DNA from: Alphaproteobacteria bacterium
Lineage (GTDB): Bacteria > Pseudomonadota > Alphaproteobacteria > GCA-2731375
Assembly (NCBI GenBank): GCA_030752605.1
Contig: JASMDX010000034.1
Span: 6,608 to 70,607 of the forward strand
Direction of reading: 5' to 3'
Length of the DNA: 64,000 bases
A program made the translations under genes and the position numbers. The notes under the pieces are model-generated. The model saw nothing but the letters and a program-made list of their open reading frames with translations, ran no database searches and was not told where the DNA came from. Of the stretch, positions 4,342 to 58,031 are shown in pieces. Within the stretch, counting starts at the first letter, position 1. Every line of letters begins with the position of its first letter.

Positions 4342-5001
4342 ATGGCTTTAAACATAAAAAACCTAGATGTTGTAAAAGACGCCAAAAGCGACACGACGAA
4401 CGTCAAAGAACTGAATATAGATCATCATGGCGTGGATACAGCCGCTGATGGCTCTGTCAATGCGCCGGTTAGCGCTACGGTCAGTGAACCAGTCGATATT
4501 GAGAGCGATGTCAAGAATGGCACCGTGAAATGGTTCGACGCCGTCAAGGGATATGGCTTTTTTGTTCCAGGCGACGATTCGGGCGATGTTCTGATCCATA
4601 AATCGATACTCCGCGATGCCGGCATAGAGATTGTTTATGAAGGCACCGTGGTGGTTTGCGAGATTGTCCAGGGTGAGCGGGGACAGCAGGCCTCCCGTGT
4701 CATATCGGCTGATAACAGTGGTGCGCTGGTGCCGCCGCCCCGGTCCGCCCGCCCGGCGGGCGAGGAGCGTCCGGCCCTGGTCGAAGGCGAGGGCGACTTC
4801 GTCGATGCCACGGTGAAGTGGTTCAACCGGGTCAAGGGCTATGGCTTTGTCACCCGTGGTGAAGGCACCGACGATGTCTTCATCCATATCGAGACATTGC
4901 GCCGCTTCGGCTCCGATGATCTGCTGCCGGGCCAGGCCCTGCAGATCCGTATCGGCAACGGCCCGAAAGGGCCGCTGGTGGCGGAGATCGTCTTCGTCTG
5001 A
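4342..5001 (+). CDS. Cold-shock protein with two CSD domains
   Basis: Two RNP1-type motifs ([14 protein letters not shown] and [14 protein letters not shown]), each followed by DV(L/F)IH. Confidence 0.92.
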
Positions 5002-8519: not shown

Positions 8520-8841
8520 AATCTTTGTTGAGGAAGGGGCCGAGGTGGTATTTTGCGGCCGGCGCGAAAATCTGGGCCAGGCGTTGGCGGAAATGGTCGG
8601 CGTCAAGGCGGCTTTGATCAAAACTGATGTCTACGTCGAGGCGGAGGTTGCCGATCTGATGGCCCGGACGGTCGATAGGCACGGACGCATCAACATCCTT
8701 TTCAACAATGCCAGCGGCCTCGCGCCAGGGCAACGGGTCGATCATCAACAACGGTAGTGTCGCGGCGTATCAAGCCGGTAATGGACCGCCCTGCAAGAAG
8801 ACCTGTCCGGCCTGAAAAGCGCCTTCGATGCCGCCGGTTAG
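8449..8841 (+). pseudogene. Internally deleted short-chain dehydrogenase (SDR)
   Basis: MGRLNGKIAMITGGTSDIG..ILFNNA, then a frame change to GSIINNGSVAAYQAG, then a tail LQEDLSGLKSAFDAAG*; the catalytic YxxxK region is missing. Confidence 0.8.
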
Positions 8842-11129
8842 CCTGATGCATTACTGATCGCTTGCCACAGGCGTTCCTGGGTCGCCGGCATGTCGATGTT
8901 CGTGATGCCCAGGGGCTTCAGGGCATCCAGTACCGCCGACATTATTGTTTGTGGCGCCCCGATGCAGCCCGCCTGGCCGGAGCCTTTGACGCCGAGCGGA
9001 TTGTTCAACGTCGGGGTTTGGCGGAAATGCACCTCGAACGAGGGCAAGTGCGAAGCGCGGGGCACGGTGTAGTCCATCAAGCTGCCGCTCAATAATTGCG
9101 CCGTATCCGGGTCGTAGGCGACCTCCTCCCACATGGCCTGGCCGATGCCTTGGGTGACGCCGCCGTGTACCTGGCCCTCGGTCAGGCGCGGATTAATCAT
9201 TGATCCGTAGTCATCGACCATCAGATAGCGGGCCAGGCGTATCGCACCAGTGTCCCGGTCGATCTCGACCTCGGCCACATGGCTGCCGCTGGGCAGGGTA
9301 AACGGCGCATCTTCGCGCCGCTCGTAACTATCCAGGCTACCCTTCGCCTGCCTAGCGACTTCCGAGAGGGAAACCGAGCGGCTGCTGTCAGCCACGCAAA
9401 ACTCACCGTCGGTGAATTCCAAAACCGCCTCATCCGCCTGTAACATCTGCGCCGCGATGGGCCGGGCCTTGGTCAGGGCCGCTTCCAGTGCAGCAACCAG
9501 GGCGCTGCCGCCCATATGCATGGAGCGGGCGCCGCCATGGCCGTTGCCCGCACGGACCAACGTGGTGTCCGCCTGGATGTAACGGAAGCTATCGAGAGGC
9601 AGGCCGAAATGGTCGGCGGCGATCTGGCTATATGCCGTTTCGTGCCCCTGACCGTTGGATTCCGTTCCTAAGCGCAGCTCCACCGAGCCATCGTCGAGGA
9701 ATTTGACCTCCGCGCCTTCCGAGGGCGCACCGCGCGCGGTCTCCAGGAAACAGGCGATACCCAGGCCTAGCAACTTGCCCTGCTCGGCCGCCGCCGCCCG
9801 CCGCGCTTCAAAGCTCGTGCGGTCGGCCAGGCGGACCGCTTCTTTCAGGTTGCCCTTGAAATCGCCGGTATCGATCTCGATCCCCAGCGAAGAGGTGTAG
9901 GGATAGCTGTCGATGACGTTGAGTAAGCGCAGTCGCACCCCATCGATGCCTGTTTGCACCGCCGCCGCTTCGATCAGGCGCTCGATAATATAATTAGATT
10001 CGGGCTTGCCCGCACCGCGATAGGCATCCACCGGCACGGTATTGGTAAATGCGCCATGCACCTCCAGGAAGACATCGGGAATATCATAGACCCCGCCCAT
10101 CGCTGTGGAGGCGGCATTGGTCGAGACACCTGGCCCGAAGGATGACAGATAGGCGCCCATGTTGGCGGTGGTAGCCGCCGAAAGCGCAAGAAAACGGCCA
10201 TCCGTATCTAGTGCCAGACGGGCCGAGGCGTGAATGTCCCGGCCTTGGGTGCTGGAGAGAAAATCCTCGCTGCGGTCCGCTACCCATTTGACCGATCGGC
10301 CCAGGCGCCGCGCAGCCCAGAGCAGCATGACATATTCAGGATAGACGAAATTTTTCAGACCGAAACCGCCGCCCACGAAGGGTGCGGCGACGTTCAGTTT
10401 ATCCTCCGCCACCTTGAATACGGCGCTGGCCAGCTGGCCGCGAATGCCGTGTACTCCCTGGCCCGTAAGCAGCAGGTTCAGCGTATCCGTGGCCCCATCG
10501 TAGCTGCCGATGGCGGCGCGCGGTTCGGTCGGCGCCGGCGAGACCCGGTTGTTGACGATGTCGAGCTCAACCACATGGGCTGCGCCCGCAAAGGCGGCGT
10601 CCACCGCCGTCCGGTCGCCCTTTTCAAAAACATAGGACAGATTGCCAGGTGCCTCGCCCCAGATTTCCGGCGCACCGGGTGCCAGCGCCTTGCGGCTGTC
10701 GACTACGGCGGGCAGACCCTCGTAATCAACCTCGATCAATTCCAGGGCGTCGAGGGCGGCTTCATGGCTTTCCGCGACGACGAATGCCACCGGATCGCCC
10801 ACATGGCGCACGCACCCCACGGCCAGGGCGTGGCGCGGCGGAACGATGATCGGTTCGACCGTGGCCACCACGGCGGGGGCGGCGCAGGGCAGGGGGTCGA
10901 TATCATCGGTGGCCAGATCGGCAGAGGTATAGACGCCGGCGACGCCGGGCAGGGCGGCCGCTGCGCTGGTATCGATGGCGACAATCAAGGCATGTGCGTA
11001 CGGCGAGCGCAGAACCGCGGCGTGGAGCTGCCCATCCAGGTTGATATCAGCGGTATATTTCGCCGCGCCGGTCAGGAAGCCGTGATCCTCCCGCCGTTGT
11101 ATGGATTGACCTAGAAGGGCGTCGTTCAT
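8838..11129 (-). CDS. Xanthine dehydrogenase-family molybdopterin-binding subunit (form II CoxL-like)
   Basis: VLRSPYAHA, VGGGFG, AYRGAGKPE, QVHGGVTQGIGQA and NPLGVKG motifs. Confidence 0.9.
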   Translation of the reverse strand: MNDALLGQSIQRREDHGFLTGAAKYTADINLDGQLHAAVLRSPYAHALIVAIDTSAAAALPGVAGVYTSADLATDDIDPLPCAAPAVVATVEPIIVPPRHALAVGCVRHVGDPVAFVVAESHEAALDALELIEVDYEGLPAVVDSRKALAPGAPEIWGEAPGNLSYVFEKGDRTAVDAAFAGAAHVVELDIVNNRVSPAPTEPRAAIGSYDGATDTLNLLLTGQGVHGIRGQLASAVFKVAEDKLNVAAPFVGGGFGLKNFVYPEYVMLLWAARRLGRSVKWVADRSEDFLSSTQGRDIHASARLALDTDGRFLALSAATTANMGAYLSSFGPGVSTNAASTAMGGVYDIPDVFLEVHGAFTNTVPVDAYRGAGKPESNYIIERLIEAAAVQTGIDGVRLRLLNVIDSYPYTSSLGIEIDTGDFKGNLKEAVRLADRTSFEARRAAAAEQGKLLGLGIACFLETARGAPSEGAEVKFLDDGSVELRLGTESNGQGHETAYSQIAADHFGLPLDSFRYIQADTTLVRAGNGHGGARSMHMGGSALVAALEAALTKARPIAAQMLQADEAVLEFTDGEFCVADSSRSVSLSEVARQAKGSLDSYERREDAPFTLPSGSHVAEVEIDRDTGAIRLARYLMVDDYGSMINPRLTEGQVHGGVTQGIGQAMWEEVAYDPDTAQLLSGSLMDYTVPRASHLPSFEVHFRQTPTLNNPLGVKGSGQAGCIGAPQTIMSAVLDALKPLGITNIDMPATQERLWQAISNASG

Positions 11130-11306
11130 AATCGAACCTCAATCTTGGAATCTTTCAGACAAGCATCAAGCCTAGCCATATCCGGTCATTGTTGGAACCG
11201 ATTTTACTCATGCTTGCTTGTGTTACCTCGCACAGGGGCCCTATTATCCCTGCAACACCATTCATGAACCGGCATCATGATCCGGAATACCAGGGGTAAG
11301 TCAGAA

Positions 11307-13583
11307 ATGAACGATAACAGCCAGCAGTTCAAATGGATCGGTACGAGTCCAATTCGGCCGGACGGACTAGACAAGGTAACAGGCAGGGCGCTGTTCGGCG
11401 CCGATCTCAAACTGCCGGGCATGTTGATTGGCAGAATTCTGCGCAGCCCCCACGCCCATGCCCGAATTCGTGGCATCGATACCTCCAAGGCGGAGGCCCT
11501 GGCTGGCGTGAAGGCCGTCGTTACTTCGGCCGATTTTCCCGACCAGCCCTCGGTCTATGTGGGTCCGGACCGGGTGCAGTCGAATCTACATCACATCACC
11601 CGCAACGTCATGGCGCGGGAAAAGGCGCTTTATGACGGCCATGCGGTGGCGGCGGTGGCGGCGACCTCGGCCTCGATCGCCGATCAGGCCCTAAAGCTGA
11701 TCGAGGTCGATTATGAAGTGCTGGCCCATGTCACCGACGTGGCCGCGGCCCTGGCCCCCGATGCGTCCCTGTTGCACGAGGATCTGATCACCCGGGGCAT
11801 GGACCCCGCGCCTGAGAAACCCTCGAACGTTGCCAAATACGGCGAGTTCTCGGTTGGCGATGCGGAGGCTGGTTTTGCCGAGGCCGACGAAGTTGTCGAA
11901 ATGGACTTCACCACAGAGACCGTGCATCAGGGCTATATCGAACCGCACGCCTGTGTGGCGCATTATAAACAGGACGGCCAGGGGGAGATCTTCTGTTCGA
12001 CCCAGGGCCATTTCGTGGTCCGCGCCGTGACCGCCAAGCTGCTGGGCATGAAACAGGCTGATCTCAAGGTGACTGCTTCTGAACTGGGCGGCGCCTTCGG
12101 CGGCAAGACCGTTGTTTATGTGGAGCCCGTGGCCCTGGCGCTATCGCGCAAATGCTCATTGCCGGTACGGGTGGTGATGTCCCGGGTTGAGGTGTTGAAG
12201 GCTTCCGGCCCCACGGCCTGTTCCATCATGAAGGTTAAGATCGGCGCCAAGAAGGACGGTACGATTTCGGGTGCCACGGCAGAGCTGAAATTCGGTGGCG
12301 GCGCCTTTCCCGGCGCGCCGGTGATCGGCGCGGCCATGTGCGCCTTCTCCCGCTATGATCTGGCCAACGTAAAGACCACGGCCTACGACGTTGTGATCAA
12401 CCGGCCCAAGGCAGCGGCCTATCGCGCGCCGGGTTCGCCCATTGCCGCGTTCGGCGTGGAAAGCACCCTGGATGCGGTGGCCCGCAAGATCGGCATGGAC
12501 CCCCTGGAGATCCGTCTGAAGAATGCCGCCCGCAACGGCTCCACCACGGTGTTCGGCCAGACCTTCACCAATATTGGCTATGCCGAAACCATCGAGGCGT
12601 TGATGGATCACCCCAACTACAAGGTGCCCCTGGGGCCGAACCAGGGCCGTGGCGTGGCCTCAGGCTTTTGGTTCAATGGCGGCGGCGAATCCTCGGCCAC
12701 CATGCACATTAACGACGACGGTACGGCGGTGGTCGGTACGGGCAGCCCGGATGTTGCCGGCTCTCGCGCCTCCATGGCGCTGATGGCGGCGGAGACATTG
12801 GGTATCGATTACGATCAGGTCCGCGCCACCGTGGCCGATACCGCCAATGTGGGCTACACCCACGTCTCGGGCGGCAGCCGGGTGACCCTGTCCACGGGCC
12901 TGGCAGTGGTCAACTCCGCCAACAAGGTGATCGACGAACTTTGCCTCCGCGCCGCCAAGATCTGGGGCGTGGAGCCCGAGGGCATCACCTGGGAAGACGG
13001 CCATGCCAAGCCGGCCTCGTCCAATGTGGGTGAGTTCGAACCGTTGTCCCTGGCCCAGATCGCAGCGCAAAAGGCGGCGACCGGCGGGCCCATCGTGGGC
13101 AGCGCGGGCGTTAATGCCACGGGCGTGGGCCCCGGCGTGGCGACGCAGATCTGCGATGTCGAGGTTGATCCAGAAACCGGCAAGCTGACTATCCTGCGCT
13201 TTACCACTGCCCAGGACGTGGGCCGTGCCATCCAGCCCGACTCGGTGGTCGGGCAGATCCAGGGTGGCTCCGTCCAGGGTATCGGCTGGGCTTTGAACGA
13301 GGAATATGTTTATGGCGAAGATGGCTTGCTGCAAAATCCGGGTTTCCTGGATTACCGTATGCCGTTGGCCTCGGACCTGCCCATGATCGATGCGGTGATG
13401 GTGGAAGTGACCAATCCCGAGCATCCCTACGGCGTCAAGGGCGTGGGTGAGGCCAATATTGTTCCGCCCATGGCTGCTGTCGCCAACGCGGTGCGCGATG
13501 CCACGGGGGTACGTGTAACCTCGCTGCCGATCTCGCCGCCGCGCCTTTTGGCGGCGTTGGGTGCGGGGGTGATGGAGGAATAA
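11307..13583 (+). CDS. Xanthine dehydrogenase-family molybdopterin-binding subunit
   Basis: DKVTGRA, ILRSPHAHA, LGGAFGGK, AYRAPG, GQIQGG and GVKGVGE motifs; probable start at MNDNSQ. Confidence 0.9.
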   Translation: MNDNSQQFKWIGTSPIRPDGLDKVTGRALFGADLKLPGMLIGRILRSPHAHARIRGIDTSKAEALAGVKAVVTSADFPDQPSVYVGPDRVQSNLHHITRNVMAREKALYDGHAVAAVAATSASIADQALKLIEVDYEVLAHVTDVAAALAPDASLLHEDLITRGMDPAPEKPSNVAKYGEFSVGDAEAGFAEADEVVEMDFTTETVHQGYIEPHACVAHYKQDGQGEIFCSTQGHFVVRAVTAKLLGMKQADLKVTASELGGAFGGKTVVYVEPVALALSRKCSLPVRVVMSRVEVLKASGPTACSIMKVKIGAKKDGTISGATAELKFGGGAFPGAPVIGAAMCAFSRYDLANVKTTAYDVVINRPKAAAYRAPGSPIAAFGVESTLDAVARKIGMDPLEIRLKNAARNGSTTVFGQTFTNIGYAETIEALMDHPNYKVPLGPNQGRGVASGFWFNGGGESSATMHINDDGTAVVGTGSPDVAGSRASMALMAAETLGIDYDQVRATVADTANVGYTHVSGGSRVTLSTGLAVVNSANKVIDELCLRAAKIWGVEPEGITWEDGHAKPASSNVGEFEPLSLAQIAAQKAATGGPIVGSAGVNATGVGPGVATQICDVEVDPETGKLTILRFTTAQDVGRAIQPDSVVGQIQGGSVQGIGWALNEEYVYGEDGLLQNPGFLDYRMPLASDLPMIDAVMVEVTNPEHPYGVKGVGEANIVPPMAAVANAVRDATGVRVTSLPISPPRLLAALGAGVMEE

Positions 13584-48741: not shown

Positions 48742-50250
48742 TTAGGCTTCTGCTTTCGCATCTGGGCTTTTTCGGATTACGAACAGAAATGCCACGGGCG
48801 CGGCCAGGGCTGAGGCCAGGGTGAGCAGGTGGAAGGCATTGATATAGCCAATCATCGAGGCCTGATGGCGTACCTCCTCGAGCAGACGCGCGTGTAGGGG
48901 CGGCGTGCCCGGTTCGCCCAGGATGGTGATCCAGAGGCTCAGGTTGCGCAGATCAAAGGCATCGATCATGGCGTTCAAATTGACAGTGGCTTCGGCGGAT
49001 GTGCGGAAAAATACCACCAGGGTCAGGGCGATGAATATAGAGCTGCCCAACAGACGGCACAGCGAGAAGATGGCATTGCCCTGGGTCAATAGGTGTTTGG
49101 GTAGGGTGGAAAAGGTCAATACCGCCATGGGGGTATAGGCGGTGCCGAAACCGATGCCGTGGAGGATATTGGTCCAGAATACATCCGCCGTGGTGATATT
49201 GATATCCAGCGAGGACATCCAAAGTCCCGCCACTGATTGCAAGGTCAGTCCGGTGAACAGGCAAAGCCGGGCGTTGAAGCGGGTAAACTGAACAACGATG
49301 AAGAAACTGAGGAAGTTGCCCATGCCGCGGGCTGAAATCAGATAGCCTACGATAGAATCGGGATAGCCGCGCAAATCTTGCAGCAAGGGCGGAAACAACA
49401 CCATGGGTGTAAATTGCAGCATGCCCATGATCAGGGCCAAGGTAATGCCGATAGTGAAGTTACGGTCCCTGAAAGTCACCGGGTCGAACAAGGCATGACG
49501 TGAAGTCAGAATATGAACGATGAACAGATAAAAGAACACGATGGCGAGAAGCAATTCCAGCTGGATTTCATAACTCTCCAGCCAGTCCAGCTGCTGTCCC
49601 CTATCGAACATCAATTGCGTGGCGCCGATGGCGATGGCGATCAGCACGAAACCCAGATAGTCGAACCGCCGCGCCCTGCCTTTTTCTTGATTGGAGAGCG
49701 CGGCGAAGGCTAGCAGGCCGGCGACCAGGCCTGCGGGCAGGATCATGAAAAAGGCCCAGCGCCAGTTGACCAACTCGGCCATCAGGCCGCCGAACAACGG
49801 CCCCAGGATCGGCCCCATGACGCCGCCCACGCCCCAGGCCATCAAAATGAACGGATGTTGCGCCTTGGAAAAACTGGCAAGCAGAATGGCCTGGCCCAAG
49901 GGAAAGATCGGCGCTCCGAACAGGCCTTGCAGAACGCGGGCCAGCAACATGGTTTCCAGGGAATCCGCCGTCCCTGCCAGCACGGAAAATGAGGTGAAGC
50001 CGGCGATCGCACCGACCATCAGATTGCGCCAGCCCAGTTTCGAGGCCAGCCATCCGGTCAGGGGTGTGGCGATGGCGGTGGCGACGAGATTGAAGGTAAT
50101 TATCCAGGAAACTTGTTCCTGGGTCGCCGACAGCGCCCCCTTCATCTGTGGCAGGATCACCGCGACCGAGGTCATGGTGGCGCCAAACAGCAGGGTGGCA
50201 AACTGCACCGTCAGCAGGATCAGCCATTGCCGCAATGTTAAATGGCGCAT
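48742..50250 (-). CDS. DHA2-family (EmrB-like) MFS efflux permease
   Basis: 14 TM segments; SWIITFNLVATAIATP, GPILGP and FDRGQQLDW motifs. Confidence 0.9.
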   Translation of the reverse strand: MRHLTLRQWLILLTVQFATLLFGATMTSVAVILPQMKGALSATQEQVSWIITFNLVATAIATPLTGWLASKLGWRNLMVGAIAGFTSFSVLAGTADSLETMLLARVLQGLFGAPIFPLGQAILLASFSKAQHPFILMAWGVGGVMGPILGPLFGGLMAELVNWRWAFFMILPAGLVAGLLAFAALSNQEKGRARRFDYLGFVLIAIAIGATQLMFDRGQQLDWLESYEIQLELLLAIVFFYLFIVHILTSRHALFDPVTFRDRNFTIGITLALIMGMLQFTPMVLFPPLLQDLRGYPDSIVGYLISARGMGNFLSFFIVVQFTRFNARLCLFTGLTLQSVAGLWMSSLDINITTADVFWTNILHGIGFGTAYTPMAVLTFSTLPKHLLTQGNAIFSLCRLLGSSIFIALTLVVFFRTSAEATVNLNAMIDAFDLRNLSLWITILGEPGTPPLHARLLEEVRHQASMIGYINAFHLLTLASALAAPVAFLFVIRKSPDAKAEA

Positions 50251-50467: not shown

Positions 50468-51691
50468 TCAAGTTACCGAAACAGGTAGTTTGTCAAATCC
50501 GCGAAAACGCACACGGGGGCTTAGCTGGGCGTCGCCATTTCTTTTGAGATTTGGAAAGCGCTGAATGAATTTTCCGATCGCGACTCTGCCCTCAATGCGC
50601 CCCAGGGTGTTACCCATGCAGATATGCTTGCCAAGGCCAAAGGCGATCTGGCGGTTTGGATTGCGCGCGATATTGACATTTTCCGGATCGTAAAACTGTG
50701 CCGGATCACGGTTGGCGGCGGCGATGCAGCAATGAATGAACGATCTGGCGGGAATGGTGGTTTCGCCAAACACCACGTCTTCCATCGCCTTGCGGTTGCC
50801 GATCTGCAGCGGTGATTGATAGCGTAGGGATTCTTCGATTGCGCCATGGATCAATTCCGGGTCATCCCGCAGCCGTTGCAATTGATCAGGCGCCCCCAAC
50901 AACATATCGATACTGTTGCCAATCAGATTGGCCGTCGTTTCATGGCCGGCATTGAGAAGGAAGATGCAGTTTTGCACCAATTCCACCGGGCTTAGGCGTT
51001 CACCATCGACTTCGCCGAAGATCAGTGCGGAAAGTACTTCGCCGATCTGACTACTATCGGGATTTTCCCGGCGTTTGGCGATCAGCTCGTTCAGCATCTC
51101 CTCGAATTCTAGGACCGCCCCTTCGCCGGCGCGGAGGCCCTCGGGCGAAACCACGGGATCGAGCGCGCCAAGAATAAGGTTGGAATATCCGCGCAGCAAA
51201 TGCCGCTGCCCTTCGGGCACGCCCAACATGTCCGAAATCACCTGGGTCGGCAGAGCCAGGGCATAGTCTTCGATGATTTCAAAATCGCCCAAGGCCTCTA
51301 GCTTGTCCAACAGCTCATCGATCACCCTTTCGACCACCGGCTCCAACTCGGCCAGTTTGCGCGGCGTGAAGGCGGCGGCCAGCAGTTTGCGGACCCGGGT
51401 ATGAATGGGCGGATCATTGAACACTAGGCTAGTGGTGTGATGGGTATATAGGGGCCCATCGCCAAATCTGGGTTTGAAGGCGATTTTCTTGTCGGAACTC
51501 ATGGCGGGATGCTTGAACGATTGCACGACGTCGTCGTAGCGGGTCAGGAAGTAGGAACCATCCGCGTTCCGGTGCACGGGGTCGTTTTCGCGCAACATCC
51601 GATAGGTGGGAAAGGGGTCGCGTGCCGCCACGTTGTCAAAATCGCTTAGATTGAAGGCTTTCGCCATTTCAAGATTGGACATGTTCGCCAT
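50468..51691 (-). CDS. Cytochrome P450
   Basis: DPPIHTRVR, AGHETT, ESLR (ExxR) and FGLGKHICMG heme motifs. Confidence 0.95.
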   Translation of the reverse strand: MANMSNLEMAKAFNLSDFDNVAARDPFPTYRMLRENDPVHRNADGSYFLTRYDDVVQSFKHPAMSSDKKIAFKPRFGDGPLYTHHTTSLVFNDPPIHTRVRKLLAAAFTPRKLAELEPVVERVIDELLDKLEALGDFEIIEDYALALPTQVISDMLGVPEGQRHLLRGYSNLILGALDPVVSPEGLRAGEGAVLEFEEMLNELIAKRRENPDSSQIGEVLSALIFGEVDGERLSPVELVQNCIFLLNAGHETTANLIGNSIDMLLGAPDQLQRLRDDPELIHGAIEESLRYQSPLQIGNRKAMEDVVFGETTIPARSFIHCCIAAANRDPAQFYDPENVNIARNPNRQIAFGLGKHICMGNTLGRIEGRVAIGKFIQRFPNLKRNGDAQLSPRVRFRGFDKLPVSVT

Positions 51692-51692
51692 T

Positions 51693-52553
51693 TTATTCCA
51701 GCCCCTTCAATTGCGCGCGGCCATCCGCCAATACTAGCTTGTCCCGTGCCAGAACCCAGGTCTCGAATTGTACCGCCGCGCCATCGCGCCAAAGATAGGT
51801 CGTCAGCGCCTCGCCAGGATAAACTGGTGCCGCGAAGGCAGCCGAGAAGTGTTTCAGGCGTTGCCCGTCATCGTCGCCGGCTGTCTGCAAGACCGCCCTG
51901 CAGGCATGCCCCCAGGTCGACAAGCCATGCATGATCGGTCCGGAGAAACCCTGCTGCCGGGCTACGGATGGCGTGGAATGGATTTTTGCCCGCCCACCCA
52001 GCAAACGGTAAATCAGGGCGACCTGGGGCGATGTCGCGATTGATACGGTGGCATCCGCGGCCCGTTCTGGCCTTGCCTGGCCGGCCGGGCGCCGCCCCGT
52101 GGGCGCGCCATCAACGCGGAACTCTCGGGCCAGGTAGCTGGCTTGCAAACGTGCCAGTACGGCGCCGCCGTCGGCGTTTCTGATCGTGGTCTCGGCGGCC
52201 AATATGGTGGCGTTCTGTTTCGGTTTATCCATTGCGCCGACGATACGGTTGTCCGCCCGCAGCTGGGCTGAAAGGGGAAGCGCCTGATGAATTTCCATGC
52301 CTTGTGACAAATGGATCAGTTTCGGCCACTCGATGCCCAATTCCAGGACAAAGGCAATATCCCACGCCGCGACCGAGGCGAAGGTAGGGAACACCGCCAG
52401 GTTGTCTTCCAAGACGAATTGCAGCTGCCGCTCATCAACTGGATCCAAGCCCAGCCCGATACCTAGTGCATATAGAATTATCTGGTCCTGGCCATAGCTA
52501 AAAGATTTGTCCAGGCTTTGGTGTTGCAGCAGATCTCGATACGTCAATGTCAT
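51693..52553 (-). CDS. MaoC double hot-dog (hydratase-2-like) protein
   Basis: ILYALGIG, VFPTF, PIMHGL and PVYPGE motifs; catalytic motif is atypical. Confidence 0.85.
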   Translation of the reverse strand: MTLTYRDLLQHQSLDKSFSYGQDQIILYALGIGLGLDPVDERQLQFVLEDNLAVFPTFASVAAWDIAFVLELGIEWPKLIHLSQGMEIHQALPLSAQLRADNRIVGAMDKPKQNATILAAETTIRNADGGAVLARLQASYLAREFRVDGAPTGRRPAGQARPERAADATVSIATSPQVALIYRLLGGRAKIHSTPSVARQQGFSGPIMHGLSTWGHACRAVLQTAGDDDGQRLKHFSAAFAAPVYPGEALTTYLWRDGAAVQFETWVLARDKLVLADGRAQLKGLE

Positions 52554-54091: not shown

Positions 54092-56035
54092 TTAGCTATC
54101 GATATTCACGGGCAGCGGTAGACGGCCCTTGATGATCTTGCGCGTCGGGGTCAAGGGCATTTCATCCAACAGCACAAGATGCTCGGGCAGCTTGGTCTTG
54201 GCGATGCCGTGGCTCAATAGATAGTCACACAGCATATCCAATTCGATCTCCGGATCGGAAGAGACCGCGAAGCAACAGGCTCGCTCACCCAGGGCTTTGT
54301 CGGGCATGGGCACGATGGCGGATTGCGAGATGGCAGGATGGCTGTCGAGCAGATCTTCGATTTCACGGGGATTATATTTTACGCCGCCACGGTTGATGAT
54401 TTCCTTGATCCGGCCCGTGATGGCGAAGTTACCGTTGCCGTCCTGGCTGGCCAGATCGCCGCTGCGGAACCAGCCGTCGGGAGTGAAGGCGGCGGCGTTG
54501 GCATCCGGATTATCGAAATAGCCGGGAAACAGCATCGAGCCGCGAACCTGCAATTCGCCGTCCTCACCGATCCGCGCCTCGGCGCCCGGCGCGGGCTGGC
54601 CAGCGGAAGTAGCGGAGATTTCAATGCCGTCGCCGGGCCGGCAGTACAGTCCGCCCTGGGTCTCCGTCATGCCCCACAGCTGGGTAATCTCACAATTTGG
54701 CAGCTTGGCGGAGGCCGCCCGCGCCATATCCTCAGGCACCGCGCTACCCGAGAGTATGGCCAGTTTAAGGGTGCTACAATCATGCTTGTCAAACAGCCCC
54801 ATAACCAGGCAGGCGGCCATGTGTGCCGGTGCCGCCAACAGGGCGGTGGCCCGGCCGGCCTCTATCGCTGCGGCCAGATCGGGCGGCGTGAAGTTGGGCA
54901 GCAATAGATTTGCCGCGCCGATATGGAACGACATATGCAGGGCATAAAGGCCGAATAGATGCCCGAAGGGAGGCGCCGACATGATTACATCGTCGGGTCC
55001 CAGTTGATGCGCGCCGACGCCCAGGCGGCCGTTACCCAGCATCGTGTGTGAGTTATGCGGTACCGCCTTGGGCGAGGCCGTGGTGCCGGAGGTATAAAGC
55101 AGCAACATCGGGTCCGCCGCTACGGGTTGCGGCAATCCCAGCGCATCGGCGCCGGTATCCGTTCCGGCCAGATCCGCGAAGGGCACAGCGCCCGTCACTG
55201 GTACGCCGATGGCGATCACGCTTTGTAGTTTCGGCAGGTCTAAACTCAGGGCCGCCTGGGCGGCAGGGAAACCGCCCGCATCCGCCAGACAGATCAGCGC
55301 CCGGGCCCGGCTGTGGCCCAACAAGGTTTCGAATTCCCGCTCTCTGTGCGGCATGTAGAGCGTCGTCATCACGGCGCCCAGGCGGGCGATGGCCAGATAG
55401 CTGATGACATATTCGGCCACGTTGGGCAATTGCACCGCGATGACATCGCCCCGGCCCAGGCCAAGGCCGTGTAGGCCGCCCGCCAGGCGGTCCACTCGGG
55501 CCCATAGATCGGCGTAGCTGATCATGGTTTTGTCCTGAATGAGCAGCGCCGGCGCATCGCCGCGTTCTGCCGCATGGCGGGTGAGGAGGCCAGACAAGGT
55601 ATCGTTGTTCCACCAGCCCTGTTCGCTGTAATGATGGGCCCGCCCGGGATCGAAGGCCATGGCATCGCGCAAGGCGAGGGCGTCGTCGTGATATTGAAAG
55701 CGTTCCTCATGGGGCATGAAGCGTTCCTCGCGAAAACGTTTGCCGCCGCCCAGGTCCAGCAGGCGTTGAAAGTGATTTGTGTGAAAGCGCCGCCGTTCCA
55801 TCATGGTGCGGATATAAATCACCTGAATTTCACTCAGGCCGATCCGTTCGGCGATTTGGCCGTCGCTCATGCCCCGTTCATGGCGGCTTGCCGCGATGGC
55901 GTCGAAATCCAACTCGCGGATTGGATCGCCGCGGCGGCTTTGTTTGTTGTGGCTAATCTCGAAGATCAGCTCGCCATAGCTCTCGATCATGGCGGCGGTG
56001 ACGCCGATCTGCCGGCGGTTTAGACCCTGTGCCAT
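54092..56035 (-). CDS. Acyl/aryl-CoA ligase (AMP-binding) with N-terminal HTH-like extension
   Basis: Start at MAQGLN after GGAGG; YTSGTTASPK, WGMTE, FRSGD and TPTRKI motifs; N-terminal GMSDGQIAERIGLSEIQV. Confidence 0.88.
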   Translation of the reverse strand: MAQGLNRRQIGVTAAMIESYGELIFEISHNKQSRRGDPIRELDFDAIAASRHERGMSDGQIAERIGLSEIQVIYIRTMMERRRFHTNHFQRLLDLGGGKRFREERFMPHEERFQYHDDALALRDAMAFDPGRAHHYSEQGWWNNDTLSGLLTRHAAERGDAPALLIQDKTMISYADLWARVDRLAGGLHGLGLGRGDVIAVQLPNVAEYVISYLAIARLGAVMTTLYMPHREREFETLLGHSRARALICLADAGGFPAAQAALSLDLPKLQSVIAIGVPVTGAVPFADLAGTDTGADALGLPQPVAADPMLLLYTSGTTASPKAVPHNSHTMLGNGRLGVGAHQLGPDDVIMSAPPFGHLFGLYALHMSFHIGAANLLLPNFTPPDLAAAIEAGRATALLAAPAHMAACLVMGLFDKHDCSTLKLAILSGSAVPEDMARAASAKLPNCEITQLWGMTETQGGLYCRPGDGIEISATSAGQPAPGAEARIGEDGELQVRGSMLFPGYFDNPDANAAAFTPDGWFRSGDLASQDGNGNFAITGRIKEIINRGGVKYNPREIEDLLDSHPAISQSAIVPMPDKALGERACCFAVSSDPEIELDMLCDYLLSHGIAKTKLPEHLVLLDEMPLTPTRKIIKGRLPLPVNIDS

Positions 56036-56036
56036 G

Positions 56037-56942
56037 TCAGGCCTCCGCTTTCGCTTTAGACCGGCGAATGGGATCGGCCAATGAGGCCTTGGTGGCGATG
56101 GGGCAGACCCGCATGCATTCAAAACACTGCGCCAGCAAGCCGCCGGAACCCACCGACATTTTGTACCAGAGCATCTTGTTGTCGGGATCGAACAGTGCTT
56201 CTTCCCGGCCCTGGCCGTCTTCCGCGGCCATGGCCCGCTCCAACAACGCGGGCACGGCCTCGTACTGTTGACTCATCTCGGCGCAGGCAGCCATGTCGTA
56301 GTGCATTTCCGCCTGCTTGCCGGCCTCGTCGATCCCACCAGAGAGGCATTGCACGGGGCAGAATTTCTGGCACGGGGTGCGCCCGGCTTGGCGGTACATG
56401 GAAACACAGGACGGCGCCGGGCATGGGTTTTGGGCCATGGGCCGGTCGGGGGGTAATTCCAGCTCGGTAAAGATCGAGGCGAAATACATGTAGCCAAATT
56501 CAGGATGCAGCAGGATATCGCCAGCCAGTGACCGCGCCCCGATGCCGGCGACTTCCGCGTGCAGTTTCAGGCTTTGCAGCGGCACGCGGGGGCCTTTTTC
56601 GTTGTCCATGTCGGGCGGGCAATAGATCGCCGGTGTCTGGTATTTGCTCTCAATGAAAAAGGCGGCGCCATAGGAAATGGTATAGGCCCGCGTTTCGGTG
56701 GAGCCGAAATAACCCATGGCCTTGGCTGGCACAGCCCAGGCTCCCTGGGTCTGACCGCCGACGCCAAGAGAGATTACCGATTTGATCTTTGGCATGATAT
56801 CCGAGGGGCGGTGGCCGGGTGGTGCGATTAGCTCCAACGCGTCCAAATCGGCCACACCAGCCGCCAGAGCACCCTTGCGCAGGCAATAGTCCAGGACCGT
56901 CTGTTTCGCTTCGGTTGCGTCGAATTTCGTCCCGTTGGCCAC
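56037..56942 (-). CDS. QueG/reductive dehalogenase-like Fe-S protein
   Basis: AGVAD..HRPSDIMP..KSVIS, AEVAGIG..LHPEFG..IFTELELPPDRP, CPAPSC..CQKFCP and CFECMRVCP motifs; GTG start after GGAGA (alternatives 56957, 56969). Confidence 0.78.
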   Translation of the reverse strand: MANGTKFDATEAKQTVLDYCLRKGALAAGVADLDALELIAPPGHRPSDIMPKIKSVISLGVGGQTQGAWAVPAKAMGYFGSTETRAYTISYGAAFFIESKYQTPAIYCPPDMDNEKGPRVPLQSLKLHAEVAGIGARSLAGDILLHPEFGYMYFASIFTELELPPDRPMAQNPCPAPSCVSMYRQAGRTPCQKFCPVQCLSGGIDEAGKQAEMHYDMAACAEMSQQYEAVPALLERAMAAEDGQGREEALFDPDNKMLWYKMSVGSGGLLAQCFECMRVCPIATKASLADPIRRSKAKAEA

Positions 56943-57093
56943 GTTGTATTCTCCCATATTACCAGGCAATCCTACGGCGCTTCGTCATGCTTGGAAAGAT
57001 GAACCTAGGATAAACGGCCCTCTCAGATCCTATTCAGGCGGGCGATGGCATGGTGCGGACATTGATGACGAAAAACCGGAATTGGAGACCGCT

Positions 57094-57605
57094 ATGAAGA
57101 CCGCCAAGCCCGTTGGCCGCCGCACAACCGCTGTCACGGCAGCTCCCATTGCCGCTCTGACAGCCACCGCCATACTATTAAGTGCTTGTATCACGACCGA
57201 GGCCCCGAAACAGGGCGCGGGTACGCTCTTGGGCCGGTTGGCGGCGCCTTGGCGGGCTCGCAGGTGGGTAAGGGCCGTGGCCGGCTCGTTGCCGTGGCCG
57301 CCGGTACCATTCTGGGCGCCTTCGGCGGCGCCGAGATTGGCCGTTCGTTGGATCGGGCCGACCGTATCGCCCTGGCCAATGCCCAGGAGCAAGCCCACTT
57401 CGCACCTGTTGGCGAGACCATTGAATGGTCCAATCCCGACAACGGCCATCACGGCGAAATTCTTGCCACCCGCGAGGGCCGGTCCAGCAGTGGACGTTAT
57501 TGCTGGGAATATCAATACGGTGTGGTGATCAACGATCAGGTATAGCAAGCCTATGGCACCGCCTGCCGGCAACCTGATGGTAGTTGGCAGGTGATCGACG
57601 GTTAA
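57094..57605 (+). pseudogene. Disrupted glycine-zipper lipoprotein (17 kDa surface antigen-like)
   Basis: Lipobox LSAC, a frameshift near 57230, a glycine zipper, WSNPDNG, a premature TAG at 57543, then AYGTACRQPDGSWQ. Confidence 0.85.
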
Positions 57606-57698
57606 TGTGTCACACAACAACATGGTGAAAATTAGTGGCCAAATCGTTTCGATTTTCGTATGAGTGTTGCAGCGTATGAATGAGGAGCCTGTGGTCCC

Positions 57699-58031
57699 GT
57701 GACGACAGTAATGGTCGCAAAATTCCAGATCGGTGATGTCGTTAAGCACCGTATCCACCCCTTTCGGGGCGTGGTGTTTGATGTGGATCCGGTCTTCGCC
57801 AATTCCGAGGAATGGCTGATGTCCATTCCTGAGAAAGTCCGACCCCGGCGCGAGCAGCCGTTCTATCATCTGCTGGCGGAGAACGCGCAAACCACATATG
57901 TAGCCTATGTCTCGGAGCAGAATTTACTGACTGATGACAATGGCGATCCGGTGCGTCATCCGGAGGTCGATGAGTATTTCACGGGTATCGAGGACGGCCG
58001 CTACGTCCGGCGGGATTTGCCAATAAATTAG
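57699..58031 (+). CDS. hspQ: Heat shock protein HspQ
   Basis: AKFQIGDVVKHR, RGVVFDVDP, QPFYHLL and AYVSEQNL motifs. Confidence 0.93.
   Translation: MTTVMVAKFQIGDVVKHRIHPFRGVVFDVDPVFANSEEWLMSIPEKVRPRREQPFYHLLAENAQTTYVAYVSEQNLLTDDNGDPVRHPEVDEYFTGIEDGRYVRRDLPIN

Follow-up and report, generated by a model that had tools for sequence, protein, structure and literature searches.

A predicted class-III cobalamin-type iron-sulphur protein paired with an adenylate-forming ligase in an alphaproteobacterial genome

Gene layout of the locus

The window considered here is a stretch of 64,000 nucleotides (nt) from an Alphaproteobacteria bacterium (assembly GCA_030752605.1, contig JASMDX010000034.1, positions 6,608 to 70,607 of the forward strand). 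Its minus strand carries a pair of genes, one for an iron-sulphur (Fe-S) protein that is predicted to belong to the class-III cobalamin (B12) enzymes, the other for a ligase with an additional N-terminal domain. From the list of open reading frames (ORFs) and its translation, the Fe-S protein gene (56037..56942, minus strand, stop included) encodes 301 amino acids (aa) from a GTG at 56942. The same ORF offers an ATG at 56957 (306 aa) and a TTG at 56969 (310 aa, the longest form). The GTG start is preceded by GGGAG, and the 306-aa form is a 100% match to a database cluster (P0003). The ligase gene (54092..56035, minus strand, stop included) encodes 647 aa from an ATG at 56035; the product is of the adenylate-forming (ANL) type and opens with a family-specific domain.

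The original prediction described two co-oriented genes 1 nt apart, and this is borne out by the gene junction (56036..56046, minus strand), which reads GGAGG (56046-56042)-CC-TGA (56039-56037)-C (56036)-ATG (56035). A ribosome-binding site lies within the 3′ end of the Fe-S gene, and the two genes are likely to be translationally coupled. The pair is flanked on either side by genes of the opposite strand and so has the appearance of an operon complete in two genes. A promoter scan of the locus returned no sigma-70-like sites, and the six terminator-like sites recorded are not above the number in shuffled sequences (3.3 +/- 2.0).

Family assignment of the Fe-S protein

No Pfam family scores above its cut-off on the Fe-S protein, and PF13486 gives no match at E<=1. 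The QueG model TIGR00276 reaches 22.8 bits against a cut-off of 200 and matches just positions 137-197 of its 337, and the reductive dehalogenase model TIGR02486 reaches 16.5 bits against 160.35. A PDB search with the single sequence returned chance RING-finger matches alone (E 0.5-1.1), and the profile of the narrow family (alignment A1) matched QueG alone among the solved structures, at E 0.049. Homologues of the protein number 881 at E<=0.001 among 8000 candidates scored, and the family profile recovered 426 representatives at E<=0.001 out of 1.84 billion. An exhaustive profile search yielded a wide alignment (A3) of 40 sequences, down to 21% identity, and it is only with this alignment, not with the single sequence or A1, that homology to solved structures becomes significant. 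The A3 profile matches QueG (5d08, E 2.6e-19), RdhA (8q4h, 5e-19), PceA (7.4e-14) and NpRdhA (5e-10), with no significant match beyond the QueG and RdhA structures. Alignment of the family with the QueG of its own genome by hhalign gave a probability of 98.5% (E 2.6e-15).

The structural comparisons point the same way. A Foldseek search with the AlphaFold2 (AF2) model gave 47 matches at E<=0.001 (best 6.3e-7), and among the 26 matches listed all are RdhA, QueG or MMACHC. In VIA-align, where the matches span model residues 1-183, the Z score is 15.1 for NpRdhA, 14.2-14.7 for QueG (root-mean-square deviation 2.9-3.4 over ~160 residues), 11.3-12.7 for PceA-type enzymes and 8-9.5 for MMACHC, and at most 7.6 for flavin nitroreductases. 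A cobalamin-binding fold was implied by the original prediction, and the model does present the core fold shared by RdhA, QueG and CblC. On these profile, Foldseek and VIA-align matches the Fe-S protein is placed in the class-III cobalamin enzyme superfamily, where it appears to form a subfamily of its own, about equally far from QueG and RdhA.

The protein is not the true QueG of its genome. It falls far short of the QueG cut-off, and a bona fide QueG (414 bits) is encoded on another contig (G000:C33:20737-21732). The automatic label ‘QueG’ carried by several homologues is probably wrong. A PF13486 scan of the same genome gave no match; the control genomes were equally silent and the scan is hence uninformative.

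A third superfamily member is present in this genome, on contig C64 (L075 6675-7859, minus strand). This Fe-S protein of 394 aa scores 84 bits to A3; genes clustered with it on the same strand encode an enoyl-CoA hydratase, a GATase-like protein, an amidase and a weakly DehI-like protein. The C64 protein is another B12-fold protein beside coenzyme A (CoA)-ester enzymes.

Motifs and cysteine ligands of the Fe-S protein

The sequence features named in the original prediction, AEVAGIG, LHPEFG, IFTELELPPDRP and two cysteine clusters, were all found in the translation. The predicted cobalamin-binding core (residues ~1-170; 56433..56942, minus strand) has the nitroreductase-like alpha/beta fold of class-III B12 enzymes, as judged from the VIA-align and profile matches. 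It contains the superfamily motif A132-G133-x-G135, and Y87 and D113 are invariant in the family. The conserved DYH motif of QueG falls opposite a gap in the hhalign alignment, and within one position of Y87 in the hidden Markov model (HMM) alignment to 5d08. An Asp (D111/D113, in a PPDMD loop) sits in the loop equivalent to the catalytic-Asp loop of QueG and RdhA, in a region that aligns poorly.

The core is followed by a predicted two-[4Fe-4S] module (residues 174-281; 56100..56423, minus strand), which is colinear with the ferredoxin motifs of QueG and RdhA. In alignments A1 and A3 its cysteines run C174-x4-C179-x11-C191-x3-C195-P, then C220, then C273-x2-C276-x3-C280-P; the earlier reading of an x10 spacing in the first cluster is corrected to x11. 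Across the 40 sequences of A3, C174, C179, C191, C220, C273, C276 and C280 are invariant and C195-P196 nearly so; C199 is invariant in the narrow family only. The eight conserved cysteines fit two predicted [4Fe-4S] clusters. The first motif contains an 11-residue insert at a place where distant relatives show the canonical CxxCxxCxxxCP. The chain ends 21 residues past the last cysteine motif and is acidic, with an isoelectric point (pI) of 5.5. The AF2 model has a mean predicted local distance difference test (pLDDT) score of 61.3, its N-terminal half being good.

Three absences reported in the original prediction also stand. By eye, the N-terminus (MGEYNVANGTKFDATEAK) has neither an RR motif nor a hydrophobic stretch and thus no twin-arginine translocation (Tat) signal. 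No RdhB-like anchor is adjacent, and the loci compared below share no small membrane gene next to the pair. Among the 50 window ORFs scanned there are no queuosine genes, save folE at ~30 kb.

The ligase and its N-terminal domain

Two Pfam families identify the ligase by its sequence as an ANL adenylate-forming enzyme: PF00501 (230 bits, cut-off 29.9; residues 152-507) and PF13193 (36 bits, cut-off 24.5; residues 558-633). The core motifs of the superfamily are visible by eye in the translation. Its nearest solved relatives are the aryl-acid adenylating enzymes, namely DhbE (215 bits, E 1.7e-62), BasE and a salicylate-AMP ligase, and the 4-chlorobenzoate CoA ligase scores 146 bits. The structure matches begin at residue ~122 and the core is aligned end to end, over ~122-641.

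The N-terminal domain (ligase residues 1-120; 55676..56035, minus strand) is predicted to be all-helical and belongs to no known family. In its alignment (A2) the conserved core spans residues 11-105, and residues 1-105 are basic, with a pI of 9.9. The invariant positions are S28, N30, Q32, R34, G36-D37-P38 and R40, and then L95-G96-G97, R100, R102 and R105. They make up two blocks, SxNxQxRxGDPxR and LGGGxRxRxER, which flank a helix-turn-helix (HTH)-like stretch at residues 51-72 (GMSDGQIAERIGLSEIQVIYIR; 55820..55885, minus strand). The AF2 model of the domain is helical, with a pLDDT of 66.7. Known HTH families touch this stretch only below threshold: HTH_23 scores 11.9-12.8 bits against a cut-off of 24.6 (E 0.11-0.21), and among 33 members such sub-threshold matches were seen in 15 for HTH_23 and in 12 for HTH_3.

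Foldseek gave no match to the domain at E<=0.001. In the exhaustive structural search by VIA-align the best Z was 4.9, within noise, and nearly all the rows were sigma region 4, LuxR, DeoR and SorC HTH domains. The protein-cluster atlas returned unnamed clusters and one HTH cluster at 0.85, below its lead level of 0.9. The ligase had been described as ‘HTH-fused’; the fusion of an extra domain holds, and the HTH identity is weak, so that HTH-like at best is a fair description of its appearance. A carrier-protein reading of the domain, with S28 as the phosphopantetheine site, was dropped, there being no PP-binding match and no carrier fold among the matches.

A database search found 66 longer proteins carrying the domain. 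All but one have PF00501, and the exception is a decayed ligase that lacks the P-loop (its domain is 55% identical). Short forms of the domain number ten, several of them partial. Two distant relatives of the Fe-S protein, P0162 (401 aa) and P0170 (391 aa), have a C-terminal extension of ~100 aa with an HTH-like stretch. These were not used as a Rosetta-stone fusion, as hhalign of the extension against A2 gave a probability of 53% over 27 columns and Pfam gave nothing.

Conservation of the pairing

A scan of species-representative genomes yielded 67 loci of the family. The hosts are mostly uncultured Alphaproteobacteria (Rhodospirillaceae-type, marine and sponge-associated), joined by Gammaproteobacteria, Immundisolibacterales, Hyphomicrobiaceae and one metagenome-assembled genome of the Gemmatimonadales; the pair thus recurs in numerous bacteria of sea and soil. 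At every one of the 67, the gene directly 3′ of the Fe-S gene begins with a sequence homologous to ligase residues 1-105/140, and the pairing is accordingly conserved in other genomes. With this and the 881 homologues, the feature lies well outside what chance would give. The gap between the two genes is -4 to +8 nt at 56 loci and 30 or 46 nt at two; at the other nine it is not exactly readable, the domain start being found ~10 residues later.

The body of the downstream gene is more variable. It is a full ligase of 643-700 aa in 52 of the 67 loci, a shortened ligase of ~440-565 aa without the C-terminal part in ten, the domain alone (~110 aa) in two (L027 and L029), and is cut by the contig end in three. 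The proposed pairing of the Fe-S protein with a ligase is therefore strict for the N-terminal domain only; 12 loci have a shortened catalytic core or none. Clustering of the ORFs of all loci gave no third conserved gene, and the strict invariant is the Fe-S protein with the N-terminal domain, to which the ligase core is usually attached. HspQ, a glycine-zipper protein and a SIMPL-like gene are syntenic in close relatives only (at most 13 loci).

Compared with the window, the Fe-S protein has a median identity of 78%, the domain 61% and the ligase core 56% (53 of the 67 loci, with long alignments). By this measure the Fe-S protein is the slowest evolving part. Among 301 genomes evenly sampled from the class, 11, the present genome (G000) included, carry the Fe-S gene at E<=1e-30; they belong to several families, and three have two copies. 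Patchy and accessory in its occurrence, the family is nonetheless strongly conserved.

Several neighbourhoods hold related enzymes. At ten loci (L045-L054) there is a same-strand array of an RdhA-like protein, an AMP-ligase, the Fe-S protein and the domain-ligase (e.g. L048 3117-8876). The RdhA-like protein of this array has PF13486 and Fer4_16, is 420 aa long and by eye lacks a Tat signal. A further AMP-ligase gene lies upstream on the same strand in 20 of the 67 loci; the one in L019, next to a malonyl-CoA decarboxylase gene, is possibly unrelated. A gene of the methylenetetrahydrofolate reductase (MTHFR) family occurs near the module in ten of the 67 loci, drawn from two divergent subgroups, and is just upstream in most of L045-L054.

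Duplication is also seen. In L029 (874-6995) the tandem order is a ligase, a 372-aa protein, a 324-aa paralogue, a partial AMP-binding protein, the Fe-S protein and a 109-aa stand-alone domain gene. The 324-aa protein is clearly, if distantly, paralogous to the Fe-S protein (hhalign probability 100, E 7e-39), and the 372-aa protein shows sub-threshold Fer4 only. Loci L060-L068, together with second copies in genomes G050, G252 and G261, form a paralogous subgroup of ~55% identity in which the domain is kept and the ligase is shortened. L062, L063 and L065-L067 have in addition a full-length ligase encoded separately upstream, and some genomes carry both the main and this second subgroup. These clues fit a catabolic, substrate-diversifying system of B12-type reductases and acid-activating enzymes, although none of them fixes the substrate.

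The upstream direct repeat

A direct repeat, GTTTATC-CTAG-GTTCATC (56998..57015, minus strand), lies ~56 nt upstream of the GTG start and could serve a regulator of the operon in this clade. Fifteen close loci share it inside an otherwise variable spacer, L013 having three copies. The whole genome contains one exact site and one with a mismatch; a control pattern gave one. Upstream of the gene in 32 distant loci the repeat is absent and no shared motif was found. This pattern argues for the site of a clade-specific regulator. The architecture of the repeat recalls the sites of direct-repeat-binding regulators.

Comparison with known systems

Just three functional types of class-III cobalamin enzymes, RdhA, QueG and CblC, have been described (PMC4646009). 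The same account gives QueG a conserved D-Y-H active-site motif and a catalytic Asp, and states that CblC has no ferredoxin module. The Fe-S protein resembles QueG (TIGR00276; 5d08, 5d0a, 5d6s) in its core fold, its AGxG motif, the two-[4Fe-4S] module in the same order, the predicted cytoplasmic location and the lack of a Tat signal. In contrast to QueG, it has the insert of 11 residues in the first cysteine motif, fails the model cut-off, coexists with a true QueG and always has a ligase-domain gene beside it. It also stops short of QueG, with nothing to match the stretch after model position 197, the tRNA-binding region of that enzyme.

The likeness to RdhA (PceA 4uqu and 8q4h; NpRdhA 4ras and 6zxu) extends over the core fold, the two Fe-S clusters and profile homology at E 5e-19 to 5e-10. 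Like NpRdhA (PMC10463259), the Fe-S protein is predicted to be cytoplasmic and, as judged from the organism names, occurs in aerobic marine Proteobacteria. Unlike RdhA, the Fe-S protein is only ~300 aa long, whereas PceA-type chains measure 413-503 aa and NpRdhA ~700 aa. It is also without PF13486/TIGR02486 membership, Tat signal, RdhB or fused reductase, and its ligase-domain partner is obligatory. With CblC/MMACHC (3sc0, 3som) it shares a B12-binding core of similar size, at a greater distance than from QueG and RdhA.

The ligase core is aligned end to end with DhbE, EntE, BasE, salicylate-AMP ligases and the 4-chlorobenzoate:CoA ligase. The window ligase differs from the aryl-acid adenylating enzymes in its extra N-terminal domain, and no carrier-protein partner is seen nearby. 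In the 4-chlorobenzoate pathway, activation by CoA precedes dehalogenation. No description of a QueG/RdhA-like protein coupled to a ligase was found in full-text searches of a literature collection that lacks most subscription journals.

Proposed function and alternative explanations

None of the three refuting conditions attached to the original prediction holds. It is suggested, with about even confidence, that the locus is a bicistronic operon for a two-protein cytoplasmic unit, consisting of a minimal class-III cobalamin/[4Fe-4S] reductase and a dedicated acid-activating ligase. The ligase would activate a carboxylic acid, probably aromatic or alicyclic, as an acyl-adenylate or CoA thioester. 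The Fe-S protein would take electrons from a ferredoxin-type low-potential donor encoded elsewhere and pass them through its two clusters to cob(I)alamin. A leaving group, such as a halide or an epoxide oxygen, would then be reductively removed from the activated acid. The N-terminal domain may link ligase and reductase, whether by docking or as a subunit, since it accompanies the Fe-S gene even where the ligase core has been lost. The context lends some support to this two-protein unit: CobN (1648 bits) and a B12-type QueG are encoded in the genome, loci L045-L054 and L029 carry further proteins of these kinds, and pieces of both genes recur in RNA libraries.

A number of observations weigh against this two-protein reductase. 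The AF2 model is mediocre overall and its Fe-S half falls below 50, and a predicted fold alone is no proof of cobalamin binding. The family shows a gap opposite the DYH motif of QueG, and Y87 and D113 can be equated only approximately with the catalytic residues Tyr and Asp of QueG and RdhA. From the truncation or loss of the ligase core in 12 of the 67 loci, it follows that adenylation in cis is not essential. No NCBIfam ligase model reaches its cut-off on the ligase, and because the fatty-acid, cyclohexanecarboxylate and dihydroxybenzoate/aryl-acid models score alike, no substrate can be assigned to it. Genes for an electron donor, a transporter or a subsequent catabolic step show no conserved place next to the pair across the loci. 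In the genome (4.43 Mb, 94.65% complete) CobS was not found.

Other explanations differ in which of the two proteins they recast. The N-terminal domain may be a DNA-binding HTH, in which case the ligase would double as the regulator of its own operon by sensing its acyl-adenylate, as the enzyme BirA does double as a regulator, and the adjacency of the genes would reflect shared regulation and no complex. This can coexist with the B12 reading of the Fe-S protein. It would account for the HTH-like residues 51-72 with their sub-threshold HTH_23 and HTH_3 matches, for weak fold matches drawn nearly all from the DNA-binding domains of sigma region 4, LuxR and DeoR, and for a conserved repeat upstream of the operon that is close to unique in the genome. 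However, every HTH match is below cut-off or within noise, and the two invariant blocks lie outside the HTH-like stretch and are unneeded by a plain HTH. The repeat is limited to the close clade and missing from the distant loci, yet the invariant residues of the domain are common to all; for this reason a sequence-specific autoregulator is mildly disfavoured, and the regulatory explanation is considered unlikely. Less probable still is that the Fe-S protein has lost cobalamin binding and acts as a flavin-binding or cofactor-less redox protein of nitroreductase fold, or as a ferredoxin-like carrier for the ligase or another enzyme. The fold is common to flavin mononucleotide (FMN) nitroreductases, no diagnostic sequence motif for corrinoid binding exists, the DYH motif of QueG is not kept, and the protein is smaller than every characterised QueG or RdhA structure matched. 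Nevertheless, the B12 enzymes have about twice the Z of the flavin enzymes (12-15 against at most 7.6), the significant profile matches are to QueG and RdhA only, and the AGxG motif, the core and the adjoining two-cluster chain are kept as in those enzymes, which makes such a loss improbable.

The corrinoid could instead be the substrate, in a CblC-like dealkylation, decyanation or reduction, or, as a variant, the Fe-S protein could use Co(I) for the O-demethylation of methoxylated acids with transfer of the methyl group to tetrahydrofolate. The MMACHC/CblC fold likeness (Foldseek E 8e-4) and the MTHFR-family genes of ten loci are in keeping with this. RdhA and QueG are clearly closer than CblC, however, the other 57 loci, among them the ones most like the window, have no MTHFR, and the obligatory ligase-type partner is left unexplained; the chance of this explanation is rated as slight. 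As for a second, divergent epoxyqueuosine reductase acting on tRNA, with the ligase adjacent by accident, several homologues are named ‘epoxyqueuosine reductase QueG’ by JGI and the best NCBIfam match is QueG. That match is confined to a short part of the model at about a ninth of the required score, nothing corresponds to QueG beyond position 197, and hhalign places the DYH motif opposite a gap. The genome already encodes a true QueG, the ligase-domain partner is found at all 67 loci and the protein is acidic, so that the QueG paralogue is close to refuted and has only a minimal probability.

Under the two-protein reductase, a bolder and more doubtful proposal is that the family represents a fourth functional branch of the class-III B12 enzymes. 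In this case a minimal cob(I)alamin/[4Fe-4S] reductase would act only on an acyl-adenylate or thioester held by the ligase, with the N-terminal domain as its second subunit or docking piece. If so, the chemistry might be new for B12, for example the aerobic reductive dehalogenation, dehydroxylation, de-epoxidation or demethylation of aryl-CoA esters, and its setting would be marine heterotrophs and sponge symbionts. Should the Fe-S protein bind B12, this would point to a step, so far overlooked, at which aerobic bacteria of the ocean need B12 to turn over carboxylic acids, perhaps aromatics with halogen or other substituents. Being small, soluble and free of a Tat signal, the protein would also serve as a model for class-III B12 enzymes.

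Environmental occurrence and other features of the window

The exact stretch was found in 14 DNA runs of marine and seawater metagenomes from at least ten studies, some of which are possibly the source of the window DNA. In RNA libraries of two studies, contigs at >=95% identity match parts of both genes. A 182-nt contig (55923-56104) bridges the gene junction, which proves neither a single transcript nor transcription. Parts of the stretch have no RNA-contig cover, and this carries no evidential weight.

A 286-aa ORF upstream of the pair (57030-57890, minus strand) is unlikely to be a gene; it overlaps the glycine-zipper gene (57186-57545) and hspQ (57699-58031), both on the opposite strand. 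On the other side, genes for a cytochrome P450 and a MaoC-like dehydratase stand back to back (50468-52553, minus strand) at a distance of 1.5 kb, with a DHA2-type transporter of the major facilitator superfamily (MFS) beside them at 48742-50250. Synteny of these three genes (1.5-5 kb from the module) does not extend to the other loci, where the one trace is a weak P450 match in L069.

Further away, the window contains two divergently oriented genes for the large subunit of molybdenum hydroxylases (8841-11129, minus strand, and 11277-13580, plus strand). Their best matches, all sub-threshold, are glyceraldehyde dehydrogenase/aerobic CO dehydrogenase and the 4-hydroxybenzoyl-CoA reductase alpha subunit/xanthine dehydrogenase. 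An ORF at 4342-4998 (plus strand) encodes tandem cold-shock domains, at residues 58-121 and 156-217.

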